Shown: piece after piece, positions 645-30,321 of the stretch
How positions within the stretch are numbered: position 1 is the stretch's first letter
Layout of the letters: each line of letters begins with the position of its first letter
Assembly: GCA_947628885.1 (NCBI GenBank)
Contig: CANRBO010000001.1
Location: forward strand, 1 to 42,043
Length of the DNA stretch: 42,043 nt
Direction of reading: 5' to 3'
From: an uncultured Clostridia bacterium
GTDB taxonomy: Bacteria; Bacillota; Clostridia; TANB77; CAG-508
Translations under genes and position numbers: made by a program
The notes under the pieces: generated by a model
Database searches by the model: none
What the model was told of the DNA's origin: nothing
What the model saw: only the letters and a program-made list of their open reading frames with translations

Positions 645-1865
645 CTATTTTACTATGTCATATACTATTTTTGTGTCATTTGATTTTTCCGTATTTTTTT
701 GTAATTTTACATCTTTTTCTAAGCATACCAAAGGACGTAAGCCCCAGCCTCCGTAATATTCCCAGCCACGTATGTGGCTGTTATAGTTCACGGCCATTAC
801 ATGGCTACTGTCATTAGCAGAAGGTGATGCCAACCAATAGCCAGAGCAGTTGCCCATCACTCCATTTGCAGTTACATTTGAAATAGTCGTGTGTGGAAAA
901 AATACTGGATAATCTTTGCCTAATTTTGTCAAATTAGCCAAAGGACTATCTAATGTTCCGTTCAGATAGACTCCATACCTATTCTTTGTCTCTTTTTCTA
1001 TTCCCCAATAATATCCACTTCCACTGGTACTTGCTCCATTTGCATATATCTTTTTTAGATTATTAATTGTATCTGTCTCATCTACCACTTGATTCCATGC
1101 TTTACACCACATCTCTAATGTTGGTCCTCCGATTGCCACTTCTCCATAATATACTTTATTTACAAATCCTGACCAATTATCTGTATTCAATAATGTTGAT
1201 GTAGCTGCTGAATTTGGGTTATCGCTTTTACTACTTAAGTCATATCCTTCATGCATAAACAATTTTATTGGATTAGGATTTAATTTGTCTAATGGTTGAT
1301 ATGCAGGTGCACTACTTCCCCAATATGCTGACAATGTTCCATATCCTTCACCTGTTGCACGTCTCAAACCTGTGTTACTTTCTCCTTCTTCTGTTTCTGC
1401 CACAACACCTTTTAATGCACTATGATTCATTGGAACATAGTCTGCTGCTATTAAGTAAATTCTACCTTTTACATCATCACTATCATTTGTATCTGAACCA
1501 CCTACATAAAATAGTTTCCAATCACTTGTTTCTGAGTTTCCGTCTAAATCTACTCCATAATTTACGTAACTTCCATAATATTTCTTTGGATTTTCGCTTA
1601 ATTCTTCTGCTGTTAGCTTATGCATTGATTCTCTTACATCTTCTATTGTATTTGTTACTGTATCTAAATAATACTCTTCATTGCTTTGTGCATTTTTGTA
1701 TTTGTCTGTTGCTTTTTTTGCCATACTTATTAATCCATTATCTCCTAAACTTAATCTTAAAGCAACTCCTGCTAAGATTAACATTATGACTATGGTAACT
1801 ACTAAAGCAACTAATGTTACACCATGCTCTTTCAATTCTTGATTTTTCATTTGTTTTAATTTCAT
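645..1865 (-). CDS. Pilin-like N-terminus plus lectin-like (DUF1566/C-type-lectin-fold-like) C-terminus surface protein, copy 1
   Basis: 406-aa ORF with a strong SD (GAGGAGG, 8-nt spacer). The N-terminus KEHG|VTLVALVVTIVIMLILAGVAL..LGDNGL resembles a prepilin cleavage/methylation helix but is non-canonical (Val at +1, Ala instead of Glu at +5). The C-terminus YWLASP...AVNYNSH...GLRPLVCL matches the YW.sS...G.RpV pattern of DUF1566-type lectin folds. It is a paralogue of 40386-41606. Confidence 0.8.
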   Translation of the reverse strand: MKLKQMKNQELKEHGVTLVALVVTIVIMLILAGVALRLSLGDNGLISMAKKATDKYKNAQSNEEYYLDTVTNTIEDVRESMHKLTAEELSENPKKYYGSYVNYGVDLDGNSETSDWKLFYVGGSDTNDSDDVKGRIYLIAADYVPMNHSALKGVVAETEEGESNTGLRRATGEGYGTLSAYWGSSAPAYQPLDKLNPNPIKLFMHEGYDLSSKSDNPNSAATSTLLNTDNWSGFVNKVYYGEVAIGGPTLEMWCKAWNQVVDETDTINNLKKIYANGASTSGSGYYWGIEKETKNRYGVYLNGTLDSPLANLTKLGKDYPVFFPHTTISNVTANGVMGNCSGYWLASPSANDSSHVMAVNYNSHIRGWEYYGGWGLRPLVCLEKDVKLQKNTEKSNDTKIVYDIVK

Positions 1866-1925
1866 TTTGGTTTCCTCCTCAATTTTTTTATTACTATTTA
1901 TTAATTAATGATTAATGTTTTATAT

Positions 1926-2000
1926 ATCTTAAAAATATTATATTTGACAGTGTCCGCACTAACTTTCAACAGAAGTGTTTGAAATAAATTTCATGCACAA
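1926..2000 (+). repeat. Degenerate left-half copy of the MITE-like element
   Basis: atcttaaaaatattatatttgacagtgtccgcact...aaatttcatgcacaa aligns with the left end of the 2735-2932 element (cttaaaaatattatagttaaagcgtccgcgc...aaatttcatacaag). Confidence 0.5.
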
Positions 2001-2026
2001 ATAAAAGCCACATATTTTAGTTCTCA

Positions 2027-2054
2027 CTAAAATACATAGCTTTGATTTCTATGT
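2027..2054 (-). terminator. Terminator-like hairpin between the leader ORF and pilin-like gene 1
   Basis: The minus strand reads acatag-aaatcaaag-ctatgt followed by atttt. The stem is 6 bp and AT-rich, so it is weak. Confidence 0.3.
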
Positions 2055-2075
2055 TTCCATTTATTTCTATTAATT

Positions 2076-2141
2076 TTAAACTATTTGTGTGTGTGTGTGT
2101 GTGTGTGTGTGTACTCTCGCAAGGCTTTCAAGCTTTTTCAT
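2076..2141 (-). CDS. Leader mini-ORF MKKLESLARV(HT)4QIV containing the (CA)n microsatellite
   Basis: The SD AAGGAGA lies 9 nt before the ATG at 2141. There are 21 codons and the stop is TAA at 2076-2078. The N-terminus is homologous to the mini-ORF at 40202-40261 (M.K[LI].ESL..V followed by a dinucleotide repeat). Confidence 0.35.
   Translation of the reverse strand: MKKLESLARVHTHTHTHTQIV
2086..2112. repeat. (TG/CA)13.5 dinucleotide microsatellite
   Basis: Read directly: 27 nt of uninterrupted tgtg...gt. Confidence 0.97.
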
Positions 2142-2191
2142 CTTTTGATTTCTCCTTCTTTAATTAAATTTTTCTTTTTATTACTACACTT

Positions 2192-2220
2192 ATACTATCA
2201 CATCATTTTTACTTTTTCAA
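2192..2220 (-). promoter_or_regulatory. Candidate extended -10 promoter for the leader/pilin-like cassette 1
   Basis: The minus strand reads TTGAAA-17 nt-(TGa)TAGTAT, about 35 nt upstream of the leader SD. Confidence 0.3.
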
Positions 2221-2695: not shown

Positions 2696-2734
2696 TTCAT
2701 TTTCCTATTTTTATATAATTAAATTTTAAATTAA

Positions 2735-2932
2735 TTAATCTTAAAAATATTATAGTTAAAGCGTCCGCGCAGCGCTCAACCGGAGCGTTAGCGTAGGGCG
2801 AATGAAGCAAATTTCATACAAGCGCCGAATGGCATTATGTAAGCTTTATGAAGTAAATTAACTGCAAAGCCATGAAGGCATTACGAAATTTGCGACAGCA
2901 AGGCGCATAAACTATAATATTTTTAAGATTAA
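2735..2932 (+). mobile_element. MITE-like, GC-rich intergenic element with 23-bp perfect terminal inverted repeats (full copy)
   Basis: ttaatcttaaaaatattatagtt (2735-2757) is the exact reverse complement of aactataatatttttaagattaa (2910-2932). The interior is GC-rich and internally self-complementary. There is no ORF. A near-identical inverted copy lies at 29421-29606. Confidence 0.6.
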
Positions 2933-2942
2933 GAATAATTAT

Positions 2943-3040
2943 AATTAATCTAAAATGTTATAGTTGCAGCGTCCGTGCTAGACTCCAACCAGAGCGTTAG
3001 CGTAGGGCGCTTGAAGCAAATTTCATACAAGCGCTTGAAG
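2943..3040 (+). repeat. Left-half copy of the MITE-like element, tandem to the full copy
   Basis: taattaatctaaaatgttatagttgcagcgtccgtgc...agcgttagcgtagggcgcttgaagcaaatttcatacaagcgc aligns with 2735-2830. It ends in a 7-bp stem, gcgcttg/caagcgc. Confidence 0.6.
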
Positions 3041-3053
3041 TAATTTTATATAT

Positions 3054-4025: not shown

Positions 4026-5549
4026 CTATTCATTTACATCTGTGTAATAATTTGCGTTTAGGTCAGGTGCCAAATGCCATTTATTTATGAAACTTATTAC
4101 CGTGTTCTGACTAAAATTATATTTTGGTTCTACAATTACTTTTCCTGATGCATCAATTGCTCCCCATTTTCCGTCTTTCTTTACTGCTGAGAATCCATAA
4201 TCATTTTGTTCTGTTGCATCGTCATATATATAGTCAACTACTACTATTCCATTTTTGTCTACAAATCCGTATTTATTATTATTTTTTGATAGGAATAATG
4301 TATTACTTGATAGTACATCTTTTACATTTTTTTCCTCTAACTTGAAATTATAATACTTATATTCTCCGTTTTGTCTTACTTTAATATATCCGAGATTTGT
4401 ATTAATTTCTGATAATATGCCTGAACAATTTACAACAAATGATTCATCAAGTAAGTCTACTTCTCCGTTTTCTTTTTCCGCTTCTATAAATCCTTCTTCA
4501 CTAGAAAATGATATATTGTTATATATATAATCAACTTGAACTTTACCAGTTATATCGATTATTCCATATTTTCCGTCCTTTTTTGCGATATAATTTCCTT
4601 CAAATAGATATTTCAAATCTTGATATTCTTGTGGTATTACGCTTTCTCCTGATGAGGAAATAACACCATATTTATCATTAGATTTTACTATTATATTACT
4701 GTTGTCAATACTAACTGCTTCACTAAATCCATTTTTTAGCTTTATTAAACCATTTGAATCAACTAATTCAATATCATTTTCTTCTTTTACAATATACATT
4801 TCACTACCATAAATATGCATTATTTCTGTATATTTACAATCTAATATCTGCTTTCTATTATAATTTATTAATCCATATTTACCGCTTTCATTTTTTACAA
4901 TATAGCCGTCTTCATATTTATCTGTTAATGCTATTATATCAGCATATTCGTTTTCAATAATTACACTTCCACTATTGTCGACTAATCCTTTTTTTCCGTC
5001 TTTTTCTGTGACAAAACTTTTTGTTACATTTTTTAGAGGAGTTATTGAGCTATATTCAGGAGATAACAATTCTTTGCCATTAAAATTAATTAGACCATAC
5101 TTTCCGTCTCTTTCAACTTTTAATACGCTTGTGTCATAGAATACATTTCCATTGTTATCTATATTTTGCATGGCTTCAACGTTATCATATGATGTGAATA
5201 ATTTAGTTGAATTGGCATCTATGGCAAAAGACTGATATGTATTATTTTCTGTGTCTACATTTTCTTGACAGATAAATATTGCCTTAGTTGGGTCAGGTAT
5301 TACAATCATGTTATCATATTCTGCACTAACTATTATTTCGCCTTTTGAATTAATTACACCCCATTTATCATTTGTTGATACAACTAAATATGAATTTGCT
5401 ACATTTTTTGTTTCAACTTTACTTTTTAGATTTGGGAAATTAATCATTAGCACGATTATCATTACTATAACTGCTAAAACAAGTACAGTGGCAACAACTT
5501 TTTTCACATTAAGTTTTCTTTCACCGTCATATCTCTTTCCTCTTCCCAT
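4026..5549 (-). CDS. WG-repeat (KWG-type) protein with an N-terminal TM segment
   Basis: 507 aa. There are many repeats of the form D(K/G)(W/Y)G(V/L/I)I(N/D)..G..(I/V)..(P/E)Y. The N-terminal VVATVLVLAVIVMIIVLMI is hydrophobic. Confidence 0.85.
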   Translation of the reverse strand: MGRGKRYDGERKLNVKKVVATVLVLAVIVMIIVLMINFPNLKSKVETKNVANSYLVVSTNDKWGVINSKGEIIVSAEYDNMIVIPDPTKAIFICQENVDTENNTYQSFAIDANSTKLFTSYDNVEAMQNIDNNGNVFYDTSVLKVERDGKYGLINFNGKELLSPEYSSITPLKNVTKSFVTEKDGKKGLVDNSGSVIIENEYADIIALTDKYEDGYIVKNESGKYGLINYNRKQILDCKYTEIMHIYGSEMYIVKEENDIELVDSNGLIKLKNGFSEAVSIDNSNIIVKSNDKYGVISSSGESVIPQEYQDLKYLFEGNYIAKKDGKYGIIDITGKVQVDYIYNNISFSSEEGFIEAEKENGEVDLLDESFVVNCSGILSEINTNLGYIKVRQNGEYKYYNFKLEEKNVKDVLSSNTLFLSKNNNKYGFVDKNGIVVVDYIYDDATEQNDYGFSAVKKDGKWGAIDASGKVIVEPKYNFSQNTVISFINKWHLAPDLNANYYTDVNE

Positions 5550-8513: not shown

Positions 8514-11500
8514 TTATATTATCTTTTTGATAAACAATACTCCTGCGACTAAAATCATTATTGCTGCAGCTGCTAGCATAATTACCAATACATAATTTCT
8601 GTTTTCACCAGTTGGTGGTAATATTACTATCTTTTGACTGCTGTCTGCATCAATTTCTGAAGGTGTAACCAAATCAATTGTTGTATAAATTTCTTCACTT
8701 GCATCATCTCCTAATGACTGGTCTGACATTTCTTGGTTTCCTGATATTGAGTAAGCCATTTTTCTTCCTTGAGAGTTTGATGTAGCAACAATTTCTGCTA
8801 AGTTATTATATACAAAGTTTCCTTCGCCGGTATTTGATAATAATGCTGATATTACAAGCTTTGTAGATGATGTAGAATTATCTTCATCAAATAATGCTGG
8901 TAGTAATTCTGATGATAACTTATCTGTTGTTATCATTGTATTATATGTTGATGCTTGAGGTAGATATGCTCTATTTACTAAGTCGCTATCTAATTTTGAT
9001 TCGTCTACTAACAATTCTCCATTATCTTGTAATGTTGATGATTTGATTATGTCTTGTGCATTTGTAACTTTCCAGTTAGAATCTACATCTTGATAATTTT
9101 CATCAAATCTTGCCAAATTAGATACATAGTCTATAATTTCTTTTGCATTAGTTGTTGATACTTTGCCTGCGTCATTTGGATATAATGATTTTCCTGTATA
9201 GTAGAATTGTTTATCTAAGTAATCAACTTCTCCTACGTTTTGTACTGATATATCATAAGTAGCTTCTATTGTAGCTCCTGCAATTAATTCTTCATCCATA
9301 TATGCCTGTATTAACTCTGGTAGTTCTTTAGAATTTCTTGCTACTTCATATCCGTCTAATCTAAATCCATTATATTTTACACTATGTCCATTATGTTGTG
9401 CAAAGAATAAGTTGTTTACTGATTGTGTTGTGTCGAATAATGGTTGTCTATTAGCAAGTATTAATTTAAAGTTTGTAATTTCTTTATTTAGTTTTAATTG
9501 TGCTTTTGGTCTTTCTTGTAGTCCTAAATCAATATCTCCTATTGTGTAATCTATTTTATTATTGTTTCCTTGATTTTCAGTAGCACGTGTATTATATTCT
9601 ATTTCTGTATCTATAATACCAGTTTCAGCAACCATTGCTGTATTTTGTTTTAATTGATTTATCTTTTCTTCTTGTGCTTTTCTTTGTTCTTCTATAGAGC
9701 TATATTCATATGTTCCAAGGCTTTCAAATGAATCTAGGATTTCTGCTCTATTATTTAATAATGTTTTATCATTTGCTCCCATAGACCAATTATTTACTTT
9801 TTCTCTATAACTATATACGTCTTTTGCATCTGATGCACCTTGTACATTAGCACTTGCTCCTATGTCATAATAGTACATTGAAGATTTATTTGACCAATTA
9901 TTCTCGTTTTGAGATTCGTAATCTTTATATCCTCTTATTCCATTATAACTTGTGTCTTGATTTATTTCTGTTTGATATGTTGTTGATTTATAATCTTGAC
10001 CATTATAAGATTTTGCATTTAGACCTTTTTTGCCTATTAGTGTATTTACACTATTTTCATTATTTAGTAATACTGTGTCTTCGTGGTCTCCATAAGTAAA
10101 TCTAATGTAGAAATCTCCTGCTGGTACAGATTTAAATGCATATGTTCCATTATTTCCTATATTGTCTGATGATACATGGAATATTCCCGGTCCTGTAAGA
10201 ATTACTTTTGATGAACCTATACCACTAAAGTATCTGTCATTATTTTCACTAACTTTTACTAACTGTCCGTTTCCGTCATAATCAAATGTTGTGGTTCCCC
10301 AAACTTTTTCTCCAATATAATTTCCTAAGAATATACCGTTGTTATCAACATTTTGTACAAGTTCAACTAATTCGACTTTAACACCATTTATTAATGTTTC
10401 TCCGTCTTCATGTTTACCATTTCCAACTACAGCCTTATCGTTTGTAACATTTCTTTCATCTTCATAAACATATCCTGATAATATCCTAGAGTCATTTTCT
10501 GTATTCTTTATTATTACCTTGATATTTGGTGCCTTATCTGTATCTGTTTCAAGTCTGTTTTCTACTTGGCTGGTTGTTGATGATCTTAAGTCTCCCTCGT
10601 TTGTTAAATCAACTGCTTGTAAACTTCCTGCTTTAGATTGTGTAGCTATAATTCCTGCTGTTTTTCCTGATACTGAAGCATCTACTCTTCCATTATTTTG
10701 TTGTAAATAATTTGGAATACTTGCATTTGGTCCATAATATGTAGAATATCCATTGATTTCTGCTATATTACGTTTTCCAACTGTTACTGTTCCTGCATTT
10801 AAGTCTTGGTCTAATTTAACTTTTCCTGTTGCTGGGTCATTATTTACCTTAAATGTTAGATACATTGTTACAGTTTCTCCTGGAGTCAATCTATCACTTC
10901 CTGATGCTGACTTAATTCCAGTAATATATAATGAACTGTAATTGTAGTTTCCATTTGAAAGAGTTTTGTTTGCTTCTCTATCTGCGAAACTTGTCTTATT
11001 GCTTACAACTAAATTACTATTTGGTAATTTGTTTCCTTTCTTGTCTCCTATAAATGAATTTACATATGTTTCTGTAACATTTCCATTTTCATCATATCTA
11101 TTATATGTGTTTAATGTATATGTTCCATTTGCATTTAATGTTCCGTCAAATGTATATTGATCTGCATCGTAGTAATCAACAATCTCATTAATTGATGCAT
11201 CTAATGTTGGAGAAGCATTTAATACTATAATTCTGTATGTTACATACACTTGAATATTTTTAGCTGGAGTACTTTCATCATTATATAGATATTCTGAAGG
11301 ACGTACCTCTCTAGAATATGCATATGCACCATTGTATAATTCATCTGCTGCTCTAACTTCTATATTCCATGTTCCGTCGTTATTTGCATCCTTTTTAGCA
11401 TACTTGTATTCTTGTGATTTTCCGTTTACAATAACAGTTGCTTTATAAACGTCTTTTTCTAATTTTACTTCTTCATTTTCTCTTTCTGTTATTCCGAAAT

Positions 11501-13649
11501 CTACATATCTACTTTGATCTGATTTTTTAGTATATAAATATGAATATACTTCGCCTTGACCAAATGTTACTGTTTCAACATTATCAGGTGGGTTATTTAA
11601 ATCTTCTAGTACAAATCTATCATATACTGGATATTGTACTAGAGATGTACCACTTGTTAATGGATCATCTACATGGGTTGTTGCCTCTATCATACAATCT
11701 TTGATAAATGTTACAACACCTGCACAGTCAACACTTCCAACTCCCTTAGATTGTAACCATTTTGTAAGTTCTGTATAAGCTTTATCATAAGAACCTTGAG
11801 ATACAACATATTTTAAGAATTGGTTCCATGCATCACCATATGTTAATGCTATTATTTTTCCTTCATTATCTTTTCCATTTTCAATGTACTCGCCATTATC
11901 TCGTGCAAGTTTTGTTTGTAATCCATAAGATTTATGCCATTGACCATTTATCTTATAGTTCTTTGGAGTTGAATCTATTTTTCCAAATCTACTATTAAAT
12001 GAGTCTCTTGAAATATCTTGTCCGTTTGAATATCCACCTGTCAAATTATTCTTATAATATGTAGTTTGATATAATTGTCCATTATATACAAATTTTACAT
12101 AATATTTTATTAATGGATTTAAGTTAGAGAAATGATATTTACCATTAGCATCTGTTATAGTTGTTGCAACTAAATTGTTATTTTCATCATATAATCTAAC
12201 TTCCATGCCGGCAAATGGAGTATCATTAGCTGATCTTACACCTGAAATGATTAGAGTTTTTACTTCTCCTAAGTCTTGCCATACATTTCCACCTAATTCC
12301 ATTAAGAAGCTTTTTGCTCCCATTAGAGGTGAACCATAATCTTCTTTTGCTACTACTGCTACTTTAACTTCGCCTTCATCTTTCCACTCAGCTCTTATAC
12401 CAGCATCTGCTGAAGCTTCAATTCCTATTTTTATAAGCTCTTGTAACCTAGTTGGTATTTCTATTTCTGCTTTGTATTTGAAAGATTTTACATAGTAATA
12501 ATGATGTTGATATCCTGTAATACGTCCGTTTGAATCATATATTGGATCTTCCCATGAATCGGTTCCGTCTGTTACTTCACAATTAATTATTTTTAAATCC
12601 ATGCTAGCGAACTCATTTCCTTTATCAGTTAGAGTTCCTGTTAAAGCCATACCAAATTGTTCATCAAATATATTTCCTGGAATATTTGCAGGATCGAAGT
12701 TATCTGATACTTCTAGTCTTAAATTAACATCATTTATATATCCTTCTACTGTTCCCTTTGAACCTATATAAACTGAACCTGTTCCGTCTACTTCTTTAAT
12801 ATATTTTATTCCTATTCCTGGATTTATTTTTGTAACACCTTGATTAGGTTTAAATCTGATGTAGAATTCTTTTCCAAACCCAGGGAATTGAATCTCCTTA
12901 CCATTTTTGTCAAGTATTTTGATACTAGTTCCGTCTATTCCTGTTATTTCAAATGATGCAAAAGGTACTATGTCAGAATATTCATTAATTCTAGCTAATT
13001 CATTATAAAATATAGTTTTAGCTTCTGGTGTAGAATCTAATCCAGTTGTTTTTACATCTAACTTGTAAGGTCCAACTGTGTAATAATCATTTACTGAATC
13101 TACTAGAACTCTGCATTTATCTGAAGTACTAGAAAATTCTATTTTTCCGTCCTTATTAAGAATTCCATAATAGAATTGTGCATATTGCTCTGCTCTAGCT
13201 TGTAACTTTGACTTCAATGTGTTGTTTGAATCTTTAACAGCATAGTCTAAAAGCATACCTTGAAATTTCTCTGAATCTTTGTATTGATCTGATGCCCAAA
13301 TTATCTGCTGTATTGCTTCTTCATCCCAATTGTTAGTCTGAATAGCTGTATAAATGGCAAATGCAACACTTTGTTCTAATTTGATGTCTTTATTATAGCT
13401 ATAGTCAATTTCCCTTGAAGATGCATCCATACCACTTACATTTTCAATCCAGTATGATCTAAGGTGATCAATACAGAATAAATATGCATCATTTAGATAA
13501 GCTTCTGCTTCCGGAGATTTAATTGATAAATTCTTATTATCCGAGCTATAAACTGTAGTTGAGCCATATACAGATTTACCTATCAGCCATACAATTGCAG
13601 TAACGATTATCATTAGTAAAATTTTAGATTTTTTACTACTTAATCTCAT
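8514..13649 (-). CDS. B2: giant LPxTG-anchored surface protein with a thioester-domain-like N-terminus and SdrD-B/CnaB-like modules
   Basis: 1711 aa with an N-terminal signal/TM segment. It carries YLFCIDH ... AIQQIIWA (Cys/Gln thioester-type motifs). SdrD-B-like modules include GMEVRLYDENNNLVATTITDANGKYHFSNL and GVKVELVELV...GTYAFKSVPAGDFYIRF. The C-terminus is LPPTG (8607-8621), then a hydrophobic stretch, then KKII. Confidence 0.85.
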   Translation of the reverse strand: MRLSSKKSKILLMIIVTAIVWLIGKSVYGSTTVYSSDNKNLSIKSPEAEAYLNDAYLFCIDHLRSYWIENVSGMDASSREIDYSYNKDIKLEQSVAFAIYTAIQTNNWDEEAIQQIIWASDQYKDSEKFQGMLLDYAVKDSNNTLKSKLQARAEQYAQFYYGILNKDGKIEFSSTSDKCRVLVDSVNDYYTVGPYKLDVKTTGLDSTPEAKTIFYNELARINEYSDIVPFASFEITGIDGTSIKILDKNGKEIQFPGFGKEFYIRFKPNQGVTKINPGIGIKYIKEVDGTGSVYIGSKGTVEGYINDVNLRLEVSDNFDPANIPGNIFDEQFGMALTGTLTDKGNEFASMDLKIINCEVTDGTDSWEDPIYDSNGRITGYQHHYYYVKSFKYKAEIEIPTRLQELIKIGIEASADAGIRAEWKDEGEVKVAVVAKEDYGSPLMGAKSFLMELGGNVWQDLGEVKTLIISGVRSANDTPFAGMEVRLYDENNNLVATTITDANGKYHFSNLNPLIKYYVKFVYNGQLYQTTYYKNNLTGGYSNGQDISRDSFNSRFGKIDSTPKNYKINGQWHKSYGLQTKLARDNGEYIENGKDNEGKIIALTYGDAWNQFLKYVVSQGSYDKAYTELTKWLQSKGVGSVDCAGVVTFIKDCMIEATTHVDDPLTSGTSLVQYPVYDRFVLEDLNNPPDNVETVTFGQGEVYSYLYTKKSDQSRYVDFGITERENEEVKLEKDVYKATVIVNGKSQEYKYAKKDANNDGTWNIEVRAADELYNGAYAYSREVRPSEYLYNDESTPAKNIQVYVTYRIIVLNASPTLDASINEIVDYYDADQYTFDGTLNANGTYTLNTYNRYDENGNVTETYVNSFIGDKKGNKLPNSNLVVSNKTSFADREANKTLSNGNYNYSSLYITGIKSASGSDRLTPGETVTMYLTFKVNNDPATGKVKLDQDLNAGTVTVGKRNIAEINGYSTYYGPNASIPNYLQQNNGRVDASVSGKTAGIIATQSKAGSLQAVDLTNEGDLRSSTTSQVENRLETDTDKAPNIKVIIKNTENDSRILSGYVYEDERNVTNDKAVVGNGKHEDGETLINGVKVELVELVQNVDNNGIFLGNYIGEKVWGTTTFDYDGNGQLVKVSENNDRYFSGIGSSKVILTGPGIFHVSSDNIGNNGTYAFKSVPAGDFYIRFTYGDHEDTVLLNNENSVNTLIGKKGLNAKSYNGQDYKSTTYQTEINQDTSYNGIRGYKDYESQNENNWSNKSSMYYYDIGASANVQGASDAKDVYSYREKVNNWSMGANDKTLLNNRAEILDSFESLGTYEYSSIEEQRKAQEEKINQLKQNTAMVAETGIIDTEIEYNTRATENQGNNNKIDYTIGDIDLGLQERPKAQLKLNKEITNFKLILANRQPLFDTTQSVNNLFFAQHNGHSVKYNGFRLDGYEVARNSKELPELIQAYMDEELIAGATIEATYDISVQNVGEVDYLDKQFYYTGKSLYPNDAGKVSTTNAKEIIDYVSNLARFDENYQDVDSNWKVTNAQDIIKSSTLQDNGELLVDESKLDSDLVNRAYLPQASTYNTMITTDKLSSELLPALFDEDNSTSSTKLVISALLSNTGEGNFVYNNLAEIVATSNSQGRKMAYSISGNQEMSDQSLGDDASEEIYTTIDLVTPSEIDADSSQKIVILPPTGENRNYVLVIMLAAAAIMILVAGVLFIKKII

Positions 13650-13651
13650 TG

Positions 13652-16600
13652 CTATCTCCTTTCTATATAATTATACATTTTGTTTATAATATGTTTTTTG
13701 ACTTCATATATTGCTATACCTAATATTGCTAATATTCCTATAGTAATTCCTGTAAATGATGCTATTTCTTTACCTGTTGCCATACCTATTACAACATCTG
13801 CTGATGATTTGTCATCTACTGCATCTTGGGTATTTCCAGCATTTGCATCAATATCTTCTAGTCCATATTCATTATAATACATTGCTATTTCTGCAGTGTT
13901 TCTAACTGTACCTGTATTTTCTCCTGACATCTTTCTGCTTAATACTAATGTTAATACTGCAGTTTCTCCTGGATTAATTAATGTATTTGCTAAGCTTGTA
14001 TTATAAGCATTTCCGTCTTGTCCTAGATACCATGAACTGTTTAGTTCTGAGTTAAATGTCATACCTTCAGGAACATAATCAATAACTGATTTAGCATATC
14101 CTGATACTTGACCTTTGTTCTCAACACTAATCTTATATTCGATTAATACTGTTGCGAACTCTACATTAGCAGTTGCTAATTCAACTTTAGCTACTGATAA
14201 ATCATTTTGATCATAAACTTTTGTCTCTGCCTTAGTATTTGTTACAGTTATTCTTGATATTGTTTTACTAATATCTAAATCAAATATTCTGTTTCTAACT
14301 AATCCTAAGTCTATATTATAGATATTTGCATTATCTATTTTTATTTCATCAGTTATAGCAACTTCTTTTTCATCCATTTTAGCTGTTACAAAATCTGAAT
14401 TCTCTGATTCTGATATATCAGCTACTTTATATGGTGCTACCCCATAATTTAATCCGTCTATTTCAACAACAACTATATAACTTCCTGGATTTACATTTAC
14501 AAAAATGTATACTCCTGATTGATTTGTTGTTGTTACTAATTCTTTACCGTCAACATCTTTTGCTATTTTTCCGGTTTGTTTGTCATATAATCTAACAGTT
14601 AAACCTGATACTTTTTCTTCTGCCTGTTCTTTTCTACCATTTGTATTTGCATCTAACCATGCTGTTCCACTAACTTTATAAGTTCCTTCTTTAGTTACAA
14701 CATCATCTAAGTCTTCGTTACCTGTTCCTGGTGTTCCACTTGGTTCTGTACTTGGACCAACCGAACTATCTGATGTTCCAACAATTTTATGTGTTAGTGT
14801 ATTAGTATTTATAGATTTTTCTCCATATTTTATAGTTGCAGTGTTTTGTATGTCTTCTACTCTACCTTTTTGTAACATATATGGTAATGCTCTAATTGTT
14901 AATCTTGCTGTTTGTGATGCTTCTATATCTAATGATACTAATATGTCTGCTGAACCTGCATCTTGTTGTTTTGTTCCATTTGCATCTTGTATTTCATAAC
15001 CTAATACACCTAATGCTGATGCAATAGTATCTTTTACAGTAACTGTAACCTTTTCACTTCCATTATTTTTTACATCAATATAATATTCCATATCATCATT
15101 GTCGCTCATATTTCCTTCAGGAATATTGCTTGATAATGATGCTGTTATAGTCTCTTTAATTACTTTGTATGAGATTGTATTAACTTTTGATTCTCCTTGC
15201 ATACCTTCGCAAGTTACACTACTTGTTATATTTATTTGTTCTTCATTTCCAATATTATCTGCCTCAAGCTTAATTGTCAAACCGTCTGTTGCTCCTGGTT
15301 TTATAGTATCTCTCTTGTATGTTAGTGTATGGCTTGATTCATCATAATTGTACTCTGTATTCTCATTATTTAAAACTGCTACTATTTTTAATTGTCTAGG
15401 TATAACAATTTTAGCCACTACATTATTTTTTGCTTCATAGTTAGCATTTCTAATATCTAGGCAATAATTGATTTCATCACCTTTGCTAACTGATTTGTTA
15501 GCTTTATCTGATGTTGCTAATGTTTCAATATCACCTTTTACAACATTTACTGTTATTTGTGCTGTAACATTTCCGTCTAATTTTTCTGCACTAACTGCTG
15601 ACATGATTTTTTGTTCTGTTACTTCATTTTCAACTCCAGTAATTGTTTGAACTACTGCTAAAATATATTCTACTGTTTTTGTTTCACCTATATTAAGTGT
15701 TTCTATTGTAGAGCTTAATGTTTTAGTATTGTAGTCATAAGTATATTTTGGAATATCTGTAATTCCATAAGTTTCATTTATTAGAGCAATTCCAGCTGGT
15801 AAATTAATATCAACTTTTACATTATCTGCAACGTCTTTTCCGTCGTTTCTAATATTTAGTCTGTATTTAATTAATTTACCTTCTTTAACTTGACCGCCAT
15901 TTTGTATTTGACTGCCTGTTGTAAATTCAGTAACTATTGGTTCTAACTTAATGTCAGGTATTTCTCCTGTAGTCAAACCAACTGCTTTAGCTAAGACAAC
16001 ATCTTTAGATTGTCCTTGCTCTGCGTTATTATTATAATATACTGCATATGTAGATTTAGCTGTATTTCCATATTGTAGGTTTTCAGGAACTTTTACACTG
16101 TAATCAAAAGTCATTGATGATATTTGTTCTACAGGTCCATTTGCAACTATTTTATATGCTTTTGAATTTTCACTATATGTATTTGTCCATGAACTTCCTT
16201 CAACTGTTTCGTTTGCATTTTCACTATATAATACATTTGCATCTAATCCATTTACATTTACTGTACTTGCTAATTTTGTATCAAAGTTTGAACCCAAATC
16301 GTTCTCATTTGCATCTTTGTTTCCGCTAGTTGGTAATGTTCCTAAAATAGTAACTCCTGTTGCCTCATGACCTAGGTTATTCACAATTGTTCCACTTATT
16401 GTTACATTTTTTTCTGTATCATTTGCTTGGATTTTAGAAATCTTTTCTTCTCCTTCTTGTGCTGTTACTTTCTCTCCATTTACTTCTAATGAGTTAGTTG
16501 TAACAAATCCAGTAGGAGCAACTATTCCTATATTTTCTTGTACTTGATTATTTTCTCCAGTTTCTCCATTTGCATAATCTAGTGTAATAATGCCTTCAGT

Positions 16601-18433
16601 TGTTGGTGCTAAATTGTCTAATATTATGTCTGCAACTATTCTTACTACTGTTCCATTAGATGTTGATTGTGAACTATATTTTGTTTGTGTTCCACTTAAA
16701 TCCAATGAAATTACATTTCCATTTACATTTAGATTATTTAGTACTAATTCGTCTTCATATATAAGGTTAGCTTCTTTTACATTTACCTCTTTTACTTCTT
16801 TAGGTAATGTAATATTTAATTTTGCATTTGAATATAATGCATTTGTTATATCATTTGTTTCTAATGTTGCTGTTATAATAACATCTTCATTTTTAACAAC
16901 TGTTGATAAATTATCTGCATTTATATTTAATTGTGCTGTTGATTTAGGTTCTATTAATTTAGTTGTTTTTGAAATTGTTTTAGAGCAATTTGCATTTTGC
17001 TCTTTATATCCTTCTGCTACTACATTAGTTGTTAATTCTGTAAAACTTGCTATTTGTTCTTTAGAAAAGTTCCTATTTGAATTTATTACCTTTGAAATAA
17101 CTAATTCTAGGTCTCCTTCCTTTTCTACTTTGCTTGTTTCCATTGTAATCTTTGCATTATTTACTTCTAATTCAAGATTATCTTTTGATAAAGTTCCTAA
17201 TTCTGTTCCGTCTTCTGCTAAGATTTTTATAGTTCCGTTTTCTCCAAGAATTTCAACTAGGTTATCTCTATCAACTTTTACTTTTCTATCTGTTATAGAA
17301 TTATTTGCAACACTGCTATTAAACGTTGAATCATTTTCATGTATTTTTATTGCATCTAATACATCTTTAAATCCAACATTAGCTTTTAATCTTACTTCAA
17401 ATGCTGTCTCATAATTATTTTGTTCATTTTTAAGATTTGTGTACATATAACCTTTGTTTATCTCATCTGTTCCAAAGGCTTCTATCTCAACATATTCTCC
17501 AACTTTTTCTGTTAATTCAAAAGTATTTGTTATATTAGCTTCAATAGTATTATTTTTAACATTAGCCTTTGCTGATATCTTTGATTCTATTGTGGCTTTT
17601 TCAACTTGTGTATCATAAATATATGTAACCATATATTCATCTTGAGAATCCCATTTTATCTTTCCTTCTGAATCAGGTGTGTTTTCCTTATTAATTGTAA
17701 CTTTATTATCTTCATAAGAATATGTAATTTCTTTTCCTGTTACAATTACGTTAGTTGGCTCTGTTCCTTCTAATGTTGGGGCATTTAAAACAATTTCTTT
17801 GCTTTTTACAGGCATTTTATTTTCTTCAATACCTTCTTTTACTTTAAAGCTTATCATTGTTTTATTTTCGCCGAACTTAATATATCTAACCAAACTTTGT
17901 TCAGCTAGTTCTTTTAACTCTGATGTCCACTCTACATGCTCTGTCAATGATTTGTTTATCTTTTTCTCTTTACCATTTTGATTTACATATACTGCATTTA
18001 GAGTAATAGTGCTATCTTTGCCTAAAATATCTTCTGATACTCTGCTTTCCTTTTTTAGTCTTATTGGTAATGATACATTTAAAACTTTTCCAGTATTTAC
18101 TTCATCTAATCCAATAACATTTCCATTTATGGATTTTACATTTAGATTATCACTTTCGATAATCTCATAGTTATTGTTTTCTAAAGTAACTGTTGAATTT
18201 TTTAAATATCCTGTTCCTGAAACTTTTAGACTTAATAGTAAATTTCCCTCTTCGTTTACATCTAATGACGCACTATAATCATTATTAATAGTTGCATTAA
18301 ATTCAACATTTTCTTCTGAAGTTTTAGCATCTTGCTGTATAGTTGTAGCATAAGAAACTACTGGCATGAAATTAACACTTGCTAGCATTGCTACAATTAT
18401 TACTGCAATTAATTTGTTTAAAAGCTTTTGCAT
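13652..18433 (-). CDS. A2: giant surface repeat protein (DUF11-type repeats, one SdrD-B-like module, C-terminal TM anchor, no LPxTG)
   Basis: 1593 aa with SD AAAGGAGG. The signal peptide ends ...VSYA. DUF11-like modules include GKLIKYRLNIRNDGKDVADNVKVDINLP and GDEINYCLDIRN. The SdrD-B-like module is GTAWLDANTNGRKEQAEEKVSGLTVRLYD...GVYIFVNVNPGSYIV. The C-terminus is GITIGILAILGIAIYEVKKH. Confidence 0.85.
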   Translation of the reverse strand: MQKLLNKLIAVIIVAMLASVNFMPVVSYATTIQQDAKTSEENVEFNATINNDYSASLDVNEEGNLLLSLKVSGTGYLKNSTVTLENNNYEIIESDNLNVKSINGNVIGLDEVNTGKVLNVSLPIRLKKESRVSEDILGKDSTITLNAVYVNQNGKEKKINKSLTEHVEWTSELKELAEQSLVRYIKFGENKTMISFKVKEGIEENKMPVKSKEIVLNAPTLEGTEPTNVIVTGKEITYSYEDNKVTINKENTPDSEGKIKWDSQDEYMVTYIYDTQVEKATIESKISAKANVKNNTIEANITNTFELTEKVGEYVEIEAFGTDEINKGYMYTNLKNEQNNYETAFEVRLKANVGFKDVLDAIKIHENDSTFNSSVANNSITDRKVKVDRDNLVEILGENGTIKILAEDGTELGTLSKDNLELEVNNAKITMETSKVEKEGDLELVISKVINSNRNFSKEQIASFTELTTNVVAEGYKEQNANCSKTISKTTKLIEPKSTAQLNINADNLSTVVKNEDVIITATLETNDITNALYSNAKLNITLPKEVKEVNVKEANLIYEDELVLNNLNVNGNVISLDLSGTQTKYSSQSTSNGTVVRIVADIILDNLAPTTEGIITLDYANGETGENNQVQENIGIVAPTGFVTTNSLEVNGEKVTAQEGEEKISKIQANDTEKNVTISGTIVNNLGHEATGVTILGTLPTSGNKDANENDLGSNFDTKLASTVNVNGLDANVLYSENANETVEGSSWTNTYSENSKAYKIVANGPVEQISSMTFDYSVKVPENLQYGNTAKSTYAVYYNNNAEQGQSKDVVLAKAVGLTTGEIPDIKLEPIVTEFTTGSQIQNGGQVKEGKLIKYRLNIRNDGKDVADNVKVDINLPAGIALINETYGITDIPKYTYDYNTKTLSSTIETLNIGETKTVEYILAVVQTITGVENEVTEQKIMSAVSAEKLDGNVTAQITVNVVKGDIETLATSDKANKSVSKGDEINYCLDIRNANYEAKNNVVAKIVIPRQLKIVAVLNNENTEYNYDESSHTLTYKRDTIKPGATDGLTIKLEADNIGNEEQINITSSVTCEGMQGESKVNTISYKVIKETITASLSSNIPEGNMSDNDDMEYYIDVKNNGSEKVTVTVKDTIASALGVLGYEIQDANGTKQQDAGSADILVSLDIEASQTARLTIRALPYMLQKGRVEDIQNTATIKYGEKSINTNTLTHKIVGTSDSSVGPSTEPSGTPGTGNEDLDDVVTKEGTYKVSGTAWLDANTNGRKEQAEEKVSGLTVRLYDKQTGKIAKDVDGKELVTTTNQSGVYIFVNVNPGSYIVVVEIDGLNYGVAPYKVADISESENSDFVTAKMDEKEVAITDEIKIDNANIYNIDLGLVRNRIFDLDISKTISRITVTNTKAETKVYDQNDLSVAKVELATANVEFATVLIEYKISVENKGQVSGYAKSVIDYVPEGMTFNSELNSSWYLGQDGNAYNTSLANTLINPGETAVLTLVLSRKMSGENTGTVRNTAEIAMYYNEYGLEDIDANAGNTQDAVDDKSSADVVIGMATGKEIASFTGITIGILAILGIAIYEVKKHIINKMYNYIERR

Positions 18434-29676: not shown

Positions 29677-30321
29677 ATGAACGATAATGATATAAATGAA
29701 ATGTTTAAAAAAGCTCAATCTATGATACAAAACAATCAGATTCCTGAAGACATCCAAAAACTAATTAGTACTTATGCTAATAACAACAACAATAACAGTA
29801 ACAATTATACTAATAGCAACAATAGTAATAATAACAATTATAATAATAGTAACAATAGCAACAACAGTAATAATAACAATAACTACAACAACAATAATAA
29901 CCATAATAGTAACAATAGCAATAACAACAATTATAATAATAGCATAAATAACAGTAATAATAATATAAATAATAATCGTAATATAAGCCACAGTAATTAT
30001 AATAATAAAAGTAATTACAACAATACTAACCTAAATAATAGTAACTTGAACAATAATAACTTAAATAATCATTCTAATACCAATTCAAATAATAATAACT
30101 CAAACAATAACCTTGGCATAGACATGGAAACATTAATGAAAATCCAAAACATCATGTCTAAAATGAAAAATAGCGAAAATGATGATATGAGTAAATTACT
30201 CTTATCTTTAAAGCCTTACCTTAGAGACGGTCGAAAAAATAAAGTTGATGAATACATACAATTAATTAAAATGGGCAAAATGACTGAACTTTTTAATTCT
30301 TTTGGTGGTGATAAACATTGA
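29677..30321 (+). CDS. Asn-rich low-complexity protein with conserved-looking N- and C-terminal segments
   Basis: 214 aa with SD AGGAGG. Residues ~35-145 are almost entirely N/S/Y. The C-terminus MSKLLLSLKPYLRDGRKNKVDEYIQLIKMGKM looks like an ordinary folded segment. Confidence 0.75.
   Translation: MNDNDINEMFKKAQSMIQNNQIPEDIQKLISTYANNNNNNSNNYTNSNNSNNNNYNNSNNSNNSNNNNNYNNNNNHNSNNSNNNNYNNSINNSNNNINNNRNISHSNYNNKSNYNNTNLNNSNLNNNNLNNHSNTNSNNNNSNNNLGIDMETLMKIQNIMSKMKNSENDDMSKLLLSLKPYLRDGRKNKVDEYIQLIKMGKMTELFNSFGGDKH

Follow-up and report, generated by a model that had tools for sequence, protein, structure and literature searches.

The closest described relatives of the element reported here are the pilus switches pil1 and pil3 of Streptococcus gallolyticus, in which a leader-peptide gene containing GCAGA repeats lies before a terminator (Danne, Dubrac, Trieu-Cuot and Dramsi 2014, PLoS Pathog 10:e1003860; PMC3894217). 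Short leaders, with a stop 39 bp or at least 28 nucleotides (nt) before the hairpin, give low piliation; when an out-of-frame change places the stop within the hairpin or beyond it, piliation is high. The mechanism was proven with ATG, 3-STOP and terminator-deletion mutants (PMC3894217). As far as the literature searched goes, repeat-driven leader-peptide attenuation has been demonstrated only in S. gallolyticus. The window analysed here is a whole contig of 42 kb (CANRBO010000001.1, 29% G+C) from an uncultured, spore-forming Firmicute of the Clostridia. On its minus strand, a (CA)13 repeat lies in a leader mini-ORF (open reading frame) that is followed by a hairpin and then by the gene for a pilin-like surface protein (gene 1). 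This cassette probably serves as a contingency (phase-variation) switch in which a repeat in a leader peptide is combined with a terminator.

Other repeat-driven switches are built differently. In Neisseria opa, CTCTT repeats form a classical frameshift switch in the 5' coding region, and in Haemophilus influenzae hif the repeat lies in the promoter spacer, between the -35 and -10 hexamers. Simple sequence repeats (SSRs) also act as frameshift switches in the 5' coding region of Helicobacter pylori oipA (CT repeats; PMC10564699) and Mycoplasma mycoides MmyCI (AG repeats; PMC3498834). Some sister cassettes of the one in the window (L006 and others, described below) resemble oipA, MmyCI and opa: a dinucleotide or other short repeat follows closely on the ATG, where the signal or leader segment of a surface protein is encoded, and the frame determines ON or OFF. 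In the window, by contrast, all frames stop before the gene, which has its own Shine-Dalgarno sequence (SD) and ATG beyond the terminator. The cwpV switch of Clostridioides difficile is also a phase-variable leader in Clostridia, one state of which forms an intrinsic terminator before a surface-protein gene, but it reportedly works by site-specific DNA inversion by a recombinase, and has neither repeat nor leader peptide (Emerson et al. 2009). As in ribosome-mediated attenuation (enterobacterial trp and his; Bacillus bmrB-bmrCD and vmlR, the last in PMC9226507), ribosome position would decide terminator folding, and ACATAG and CTATGT provide a possible competing pairing. In those systems, ribosome position depends on amino-acid supply or antibiotic-induced stalling, whereas here it would be set by heritable, reversible mutation.

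The window cassette is most like pil1. Both have a promoter, an SSR in a short leader ORF, a stem-loop terminator and then a pilus or surface-protein gene; in both, the leader of the short phase stops approximately 30 to 40 nt before the hairpin (the low state in S. gallolyticus, and predicted to be so here) and the host is a gut Firmicute. In silico, the window cassette has an ORF with its own SD and ATG, a non-triplet SSR, a predicted terminator and a phase-dependent stop. As every sequence-level element of the pil1 mechanism is therefore present, an earlier reading of this DNA (the original prediction) was wrong to hold that the combination had not been described, pil1/pil3 having been proven before (PMC3894217). 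There are also differences. The repeats are dinucleotides (CA, TA, GA) rather than the pentanucleotide GCAGA, and only one of three phases gives a long leader, whereas both +1 and -1 changes lengthen it in S. gallolyticus. Mutants prove the mechanism there, while the cassette described here is known from sequence alone.

Leaders, repeats and hairpins in the window

From 2220 to 1866, the minus strand carries a sigma-70-like site, an SD, a 21-codon leader ORF, a hairpin, a 138-nt spacer with a fragment of a repeat like a miniature inverted-repeat transposable element (MITE), a strong SD and gene 1. The features are:

2192..2220, minus strand: promoter-like site of leader 1 (-35 TTGAAA 2220-2215, 17-nt spacer, TG-extended -10 TAGTAT 2197-2192; 9 of 12 matches)
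2152..2157, minus strand: Shine-Dalgarno AAGGAG of leader 1, 10 nt 5' of the leader ATG
2076..2141, minus strand: leader mini-ORF 1 in the present phase (n = 13 repeat units), 21 codons, MKKLESLARV(HT)4Q IV, MKKLESLARVHTHTHTHTQIV; stop TAA 2078-2076
2112..2129, minus strand: cassette motif GAAAGCCTTGCGAGAGTA, codons E-S-L-A-R-V, immediately 5' of the repeat; used as search pattern
2086..2111, minus strand: (CA)13 simple sequence repeat, preceded by GTA (Tandem Repeats Finder, 100% matches)
2049..2054, minus strand: ACATAG, able to pair with CTATGT 2039-2034 of the terminator 5' arm; invariant or near-invariant columns in the leader-family alignment
2004..2043, minus strand: intrinsic-terminator-like hairpin 1, 18 bp (5' arm 2043-2026, loop GAGA 2025-2022, 3' arm 2021-2004)
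2017..2019, minus strand: TAA ending the long leader-1 frame (n divisible by 3, as with 12 units), at nt 3-5 of the 3' arm of hairpin 1
1996..2003, minus strand: U-rich tail (TATTTGTG) 3' of hairpin 1, read from the sequence
1900..1997: spacer from terminator 1 to gene 1, with a partial copy of a MITE-like repeat (repeat-family comparison; families D2, D3, D5, D6, I3)
645..1865, minus strand: gene 1, pilin-like surface protein of 406 aa with its own SD GAGGAGG; N-terminus KEHG/VTLVALVVTIVIMLILAG, C-terminal DUF6273

Tandem Repeats Finder gave a perfect dinucleotide array of 13.5 copies (2086-2112), the 27-nt alternating run including the A of GTA. The microsatellite reported in the original prediction is thus real; its promoter-like site, SD and mini-ORF were all re-found on the minus strand. 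The only other dinucleotide repeats in the 42 kb are (TA)8.5 at 40233-40249, which is in a sister cassette, and two five-unit TA/AT runs.

Recomputed frames agree with those given before. With n = 13, translation stops at 2078-2076, 32 nt 5' of the hairpin base. With n = 14, the stop is immediate (AAA TAG) and more than 30 nt 5' of the hairpin. With n = 12, the leader gains 22 codons and ends at 2019-2017, the long-frame stop being at offset 66 past the repeat. This last frame, described before as reading through the smaller hairpin, has its stop inside the 3' arm of the 18-bp stem. All three frames end within 22 codons, before gene 1, which starts 220 nt downstream. Since the repeat is outside the gene 1 reading frame, leader 1 is not a frameshift switch within a coding sequence. 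Neither is it a promoter-spacer switch, as the promoter-like site lies 80 nt 5' of the 26-nt tract and the tract is within the ORF. The promoter scan listed no sigma-70-like site on the minus strand between the hairpin and gene 1 (2003-1866).

The hairpin of the original prediction was the pair ACATAG/CTATGT plus a T-run (2027-2054). The pairing exists, but these six base pairs were rejected as the terminator, because CTATGT and the T-run belong to the 5' arm of the much stronger 18-bp hairpin at 2043-2004 (-22.4 kcal/mol, z = -4.1 versus shuffles), the better terminator candidate. When 31 window-1 family leaders were aligned, 96% of the cells of this stem were paired and six pairs varied in a compensatory way (one, for instance, is G-C in 13 and A-U in another 13), with 0 of 500 shuffles scoring as high. 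The ACATAG/CTATGT pair is 94.6% paired without covariation (compatible but invariant); ACATAG is therefore at most a possible antiterminator strand, offering an alternative to terminator pairing. A trp-like four-segment attenuator (TTATGT / ACATAG / CTATGT / GCATAG) was considered and rejected, its first segment being unconserved in the window family. A small hairpin inside the motif (AGCC-UUGA-GGCU), considered as a pause signal, was by eye unconserved across motif variants. Rfam 15 gave no matches at gathering score in the whole window, and only chance-level ones in 1800-2400 at E ≤ 10.

A second cassette (40137-40365, plus strand) has its elements in the same order, 5' of a paralogue of gene 1:

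40137..40165, plus strand: promoter-like site TTGCAC-17-TATACT of leader 2, read from the sequence
40202..40261, plus strand: leader mini-ORF 2 in the present phase, MSKIAESLDTVYIYIYRGL, with SD upstream; motif GAAAGCCTTGATACTGTA at 40217-40234; stop TAA 40259-40261
40233..40249, plus strand: (TA)8.5 repeat, that is GTA then (TA)7 and T (Tandem Repeats Finder)
40287..40346, plus strand: terminator-like hairpin 2, approximately 25 bp (5' arm 40287-40313, loop 40314-40319, 3' arm 40320-40346; U-rich tail 40347-40365)
40356..40358, plus strand: TAA ending the long leader-2 frame (n+1), 10 nt past hairpin 2
40422..41606, plus strand: gene 2, pilin-like paralogue; N-terminus NG/ITLIALVVTIIILLILAG, 25% identity to gene 1

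Leader 2 begins ATG AGC AAA ATT GCT GAA AGC CTT GAT ACT GTA, and (TA)7 T comes next. In the present phase the frame closes after four codons (no read-through), whereas n-1 stops after six and n+1 reads 36 codons. The original prediction also named a cassette here, at 40137-40312, which stands, although its hairpin is in fact that at 40287-40346, a region folding at -30.2 kcal/mol (z = -4.0). Leaders 1 and 2 share TGAAAGCCTTG but differ in repeat unit (CA and TA). Shared logic with a different unit argues for an effect of reading frame rather than for sequence-specific or promoter-spacing effects.

The switch would work as follows. Transcription would start at the promoter at 2220-2192 and ribosomes loading at the SD would translate the leader through (CA)n, where frequent slipped-strand mispairing would add or remove one or a few units. 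When n mod 3 is 1 (the present 13) or 2, translation would stop 2 to 9 nt past the repeat, leaving more than 30 nt to the hairpin; the terminator at 2043-2004 would fold behind RNA polymerase and most transcripts would end before gene 1 (low or OFF). When n mod 3 is 0, the leader would be 22 codons longer and the ribosome would cover the 5' arm and loop and halt on the 3' arm (TAA 2019-2017). In this position it would block formation of the hairpin, so that transcription would enter gene 1 (ON). The cassette at 40137-40365 would be an equivalent switch for gene 2 via (TA)n. By analogy with S. gallolyticus, we infer that the hairpin terminates transcription and that the ribosome relieves termination, and hence that the long frame is the ON phase. 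Both window switches are predicted to be in the short-frame state, low or OFF.

A cassette family in gut Clostridia

Contigs of GTDB genomes were scanned with GAAAGCNTTGN5GTA(NA)6, giving more than 118 stretches (a lower bound), along with approximately seven chance matches without a repeat. Nearly all of the motif matches listed are from uncultured gut Clostridia (humans, rabbits, sheep, chickens). Counting viral and metagenome matches, there are at least 134 cassettes in at least about 69 species-level assemblies or metagenome-assembled genomes (MAGs). Among the matches listed, a MAG has up to at least nine cassettes, with up to three in tandem within 8 kb. Of the cassettes, 127 were analysed in detail, 125 of them with enough upstream sequence, and 115 were analysable for their wiring to the next gene. 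Their common features are:

CA repeat: 4-36 units in 81 cassettes
TA repeat: 5-17 units in 48 cassettes
GA repeat: 8-12 units in 5 cassettes
In-frame ATG: 123 of 125 cassettes
SD 5' of the in-frame ATG: 119 of 125 cassettes
Leader peptide 5' of the repeat: M-x-K-x-A-E-S-L-[EAG]-A-V, 10-13 residues

The best upstream promoter score across cassettes was 9.4, against 8.3 in shuffles. In 880 kb examined, 123 of the 131 dinucleotide repeats of at least six units lie in a canonical cassette, and four or five of the other eight are variants of it. In L004, from a rabbit-gut MAG, the orthologue of the window locus has (CA)16 in an almost identical leader and compensatory changes in the hairpin, while its pilin is only 56% identical. 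Approximately 700 nt 3' of that pilin-like gene (L004 2347-2697) there is a weak match to bAvd, a diversity-generating retroelement accessory protein. A metagenome scan with a gene-1-specific motif gave two matches only, both in other species. No cassette was found upstream of the closest pilin homologues, P0005 and P0007, or at the P0054 locus.

Three wirings were found. In 16 cassettes (wiring 1), one frame continues into the gene for 100 codons or more, and K-G-ITLVALVV often comes right after the repeat; eight of these cassettes are at present in frame and eight out. The repeat is inside the gene in, for example, L006, L025, L034, L064, L074, L084 and L086. L006, from the same MAG as L004 and carrying the closest paralogue of gene 1 (72% identical), begins ATG AAA AAG CCT GAA AGC GTT GAA ACT GTA (GA)9 and runs out of frame into ...KEDGVTLVALVV, so that the 'mini-ORF' there is the 5' end of the pilin gene. 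L006 also has a second 1-nt frameshift near pilin codon 35 (2334-2500), and is therefore a pseudogene or an assembly error.

Wiring 2, an upstream ORF followed by a hairpin as in the window, is the majority form (92 of the 115 analysable cassettes). The genes downstream encode, among others, pilin-like, secreted and N-terminally membrane-anchored proteins. In wiring 3 (viral contigs and L037), the upstream ORF abuts the next gene, whose start codon overlaps the stop of the long frame (TAATG), an arrangement that points to translational coupling as the means of phase variation. The IMG/VR predicted phage contigs L132 (approximately 4540-4630), L134 (approximately 780-870), L133 and L141, as well as L037, have the cassette without a terminator. 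In L132, the long frame overlaps the start of a small gene of 128 aa, which has no PHROG match.

The attenuator logic was assessed in the wiring-2 cassettes, with hairpins located by an RNAfold-based search (strong being -15 kcal/mol or stronger) and the frame expectation taken from shuffled spacers. A strong hairpin of 17 to 36 bp is present in 79 of the 92 (median start 38 nt past the repeat), with a U-tract in 63. Most family hairpins are long, with an A-tract at the start and a U-tract after, like intrinsic terminators. At least one frame reaches the hairpin in all 79 (55 expected), and a second frame does so in only seven. The long-frame stop is inside the hairpin in 58, 1 to 12 nt before it in 7, past it by up to 15 nt in 8 and by more in 6, while the later of the short-frame stops is a median of 28 nt 5' of it. 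The arrangement seen in the window, with short stops upstream and the long-frame stop in or near the hairpin, is found in 73 of the 79 sister cassettes, and the frame/hairpin pattern is found in 24 of 26 sequence clusters.

Repeat length varies between close relatives. Viral contigs L132 and L134 have (CA)16 and (CA)14 with flanks differing by one or two bases in 240 nt. The P0030 locus has 12, 13, 12, 12, 15, 15 and 12 TA units across metagenomes, the flanks (60 nt upstream and 267 nt downstream) being 100% identical, and the repeat is the sole polymorphic site between samples. P0044 has 10 or 13 units between identical flanks, and the window orthologues have 13 and, in L004, 16. Differences at the same locus are often of three units (13/16, 12/15, 10/13). 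Short-read contigs often start or end at or in a cassette (L001 end, L004 start, L048, L104, L105, L118, L158-L160), as fits a multi-copy, length-heterogeneous sequence that disrupts assemblies; the cassette would account for the breaks at these sites in these genomes. The central idea of the original prediction, that a slippage-prone translated repeat sets ribosome access to a terminator, is supported in silico by the frames, the covariation and the repeat polymorphism at homologous loci.

At family level there are further differences from S. gallolyticus. The leader has a conserved N-terminal module (A-E-S-L-x-A-V, TGAAAGCCTTG), and the cassette is multi-copy (at least nine in one MAG and two in the window). 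The genes that follow it encode type IV pilin-like, membrane-anchored and other proteins, where S. gallolyticus has sortase pilus operons, and the module is also found inside coding sequences and in a translational-coupling form. No paper describing this Clostridia cassette family was found in the literature searched; the mechanism appears to be of a known kind and the cassette family new.

Alternative explanations and implications

Several observations weigh against the switch. Exact-protein look-ups (AcpS, genes 1 and 2) recovered no further sample of this species covering the repeat; AcpS was on one 670-nt contig, which ends 21 nt before the leader ATG, and genes 1 and 2 were not on record. 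The U-tail past hairpin 1 (UAUUUGUG) is imperfect. The closing of two short frames just past the repeat is only modestly above chance (82 versus 57.8 of 115). Only 22 of the 79 cassettes are currently in the long frame, which is approximately random and therefore uninformative. The related cassettes at P0030 and P0044 are clearly decayed, with a broken leader ORF and without a large hairpin, so not every copy need be functional. At these loci (L154-L163), CCTTGCGAGAG(TA)n is kept, the leader reads ATG AAA AAG TAA... and only a 6-bp hairpin follows the repeat. In Bacillus subtilis, RNA polymerase can reportedly outrun ribosomes (Johnson et al. 2020); were it to do so here, ribosomes would bring about antitermination only inefficiently. 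The case of S. gallolyticus shows that such antitermination can still work in the phylum.

The P0030 and P0044 decay would suit a relic: a phase-variable pilin gene that once had the repeat in frame would have lost its 5' end through an insertion (terminator, MITE fragment and new SD-ATG), leaving the mini-ORF and repeat behind with nothing to control. The cassettes with the repeat inside the gene and the MITE-like fragment at 1900-1997 are in keeping with this. It is nonetheless unlikely, given that the upstream-ORF layout is the majority form and is shared by at least about 69 species-level genomes, in 26 sequence clusters; the leaders retain SD, ATG and an open frame, one frame always reaches the hairpin, and the leader is far better conserved than the protein (compare L004). 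There is also only a small chance that the hairpin acts post-transcriptionally, as an mRNA stabiliser, a ribonuclease (RNase) processing site or a mask of downstream signals, with ribosome passage changing mRNA decay or translation rather than termination. An RNase III-dependent SSR switch is reported for H. influenzae (PMC12721329), 16 of the 79 strong hairpins lack a clear U-tract, and the viral-contig and L037 cassettes have TAATG coupling in place of a hairpin. Most hairpins are, however, terminator-like, and the proven precedent in S. gallolyticus works at the level of transcription. Direct translational coupling is impossible in the window, where the long frame ends approximately 150 nt before the gene 1 SD.

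A role for repeat length independent of translation, through promoter geometry (the repeat forming the spacer or -10 behind a TTGNNN -35-like element, for instance) or through the structure of the leader RNA or of the DNA (such as Z-DNA or H-DNA), is very unlikely. The motif does always contain TTG, (TA)n resembles a -10 element, P0030 and P0044 keep CCTTGCGAGAG(TA)n despite the broken ORF, and GAAAGC is preceded by T in 117 of 127 cassettes, irrespective of the codon. Against this, CA, TA and GA units are interchangeable without a common promoter or DNA-structure property, tracts of 8 to 36 units are far longer than a promoter spacer, 119 of 125 cassettes keep both SD and ATG, and some genes contain the identical module in frame. 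Least credible, and scarcely to be entertained, is coincidence, in which the hairpin would simply terminate acpS, upstream, and have nothing to do with the mini-ORF and repeat. The acpS gene (2695-2327) is co-directional with leader 1, and a sequence scan found no terminator between the two other than the leader hairpin. Yet the hairpin accompanies the cassette whatever lies upstream, including in the tandem arrays L016 and L053, and cassette 2 has one although its upstream neighbour, a helicase gene (37622-39937), is not co-directional with it.

A wider and more tentative proposal, which we think possible but doubtful, is that the cassette is a portable, self-contained module (promoter, SD, A-E-S-L-x-A-V/TGAAAGCCTTG leader, repeat and optional terminator) used by a clade of small-genome gut Clostridia and their phages, in three wirings and with unrelated surface-protein genes, the leader having a function of its own rather than reflecting mere descent. 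The leader might then be a nascent-peptide or RNA element synchronising ribosome and polymerase, a slippage-promoting site or a site for a dedicated factor.

If the cassettes are attenuators of the pil1 type, that logic would be a standard part, used many times per genome in dozens of uncultured gut Clostridia species (humans, rabbits, sheep, chickens). The 18-nt signature is a search handle for the 'phasome' of these abundant uncultured commensals. The cassette predicts which surface proteins (pilin-like, membrane-anchored, phage-encoded) may switch stochastically in the gut, and the three wirings are a natural series for testing ribosome-position control of termination in Firmicutes.

Gene setting of the window

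Recognisable genes in the window include those for SpoIIE, MreB, a UvrD/PcrA-type helicase, MecA, RadC and AcpS. The segments G/VTLVALVV and G/ITLIALVV, each with a hydrophobic helix, are present in the pilin-like proteins, although position +5 is Ala where a class III signal peptide has Glu (weak Pfam N_methyl match). For gene 1, Pfam N_methyl (E 0.005) is under its cut-off and DUF6273 just at its cut-off. There is no NCBIfam match for the pilin-like proteins, and neither PHROGs nor NCBIfam gave names to the downstream proteins. Judged from sequence features, 'pilin-like' is the furthest permissible label for the downstream genes.

Between acpS and the next gene there is a MITE-like element (2718-3047) made of two 49-nt direct copies, 94% identical, and 46-nt inverted arms. 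Three consecutive minus-strand ORFs of 591, 142 and 1211 aa (18499-24425) jointly resemble the single 1711-aa surface protein at 8514-13649 and look like a paralogue of it broken up by frameshifts or stops. Proteins of 1593 aa (13652-18433) and 1542 aa (24449-29077) are further paralogues of the 1711-aa protein. A 214-aa plus-strand ORF (29677-30321) consists mostly of Asn-rich low-complexity repeats (NNSNN...), matching a cluster of imperfect tandem repeats at 29779-30069.

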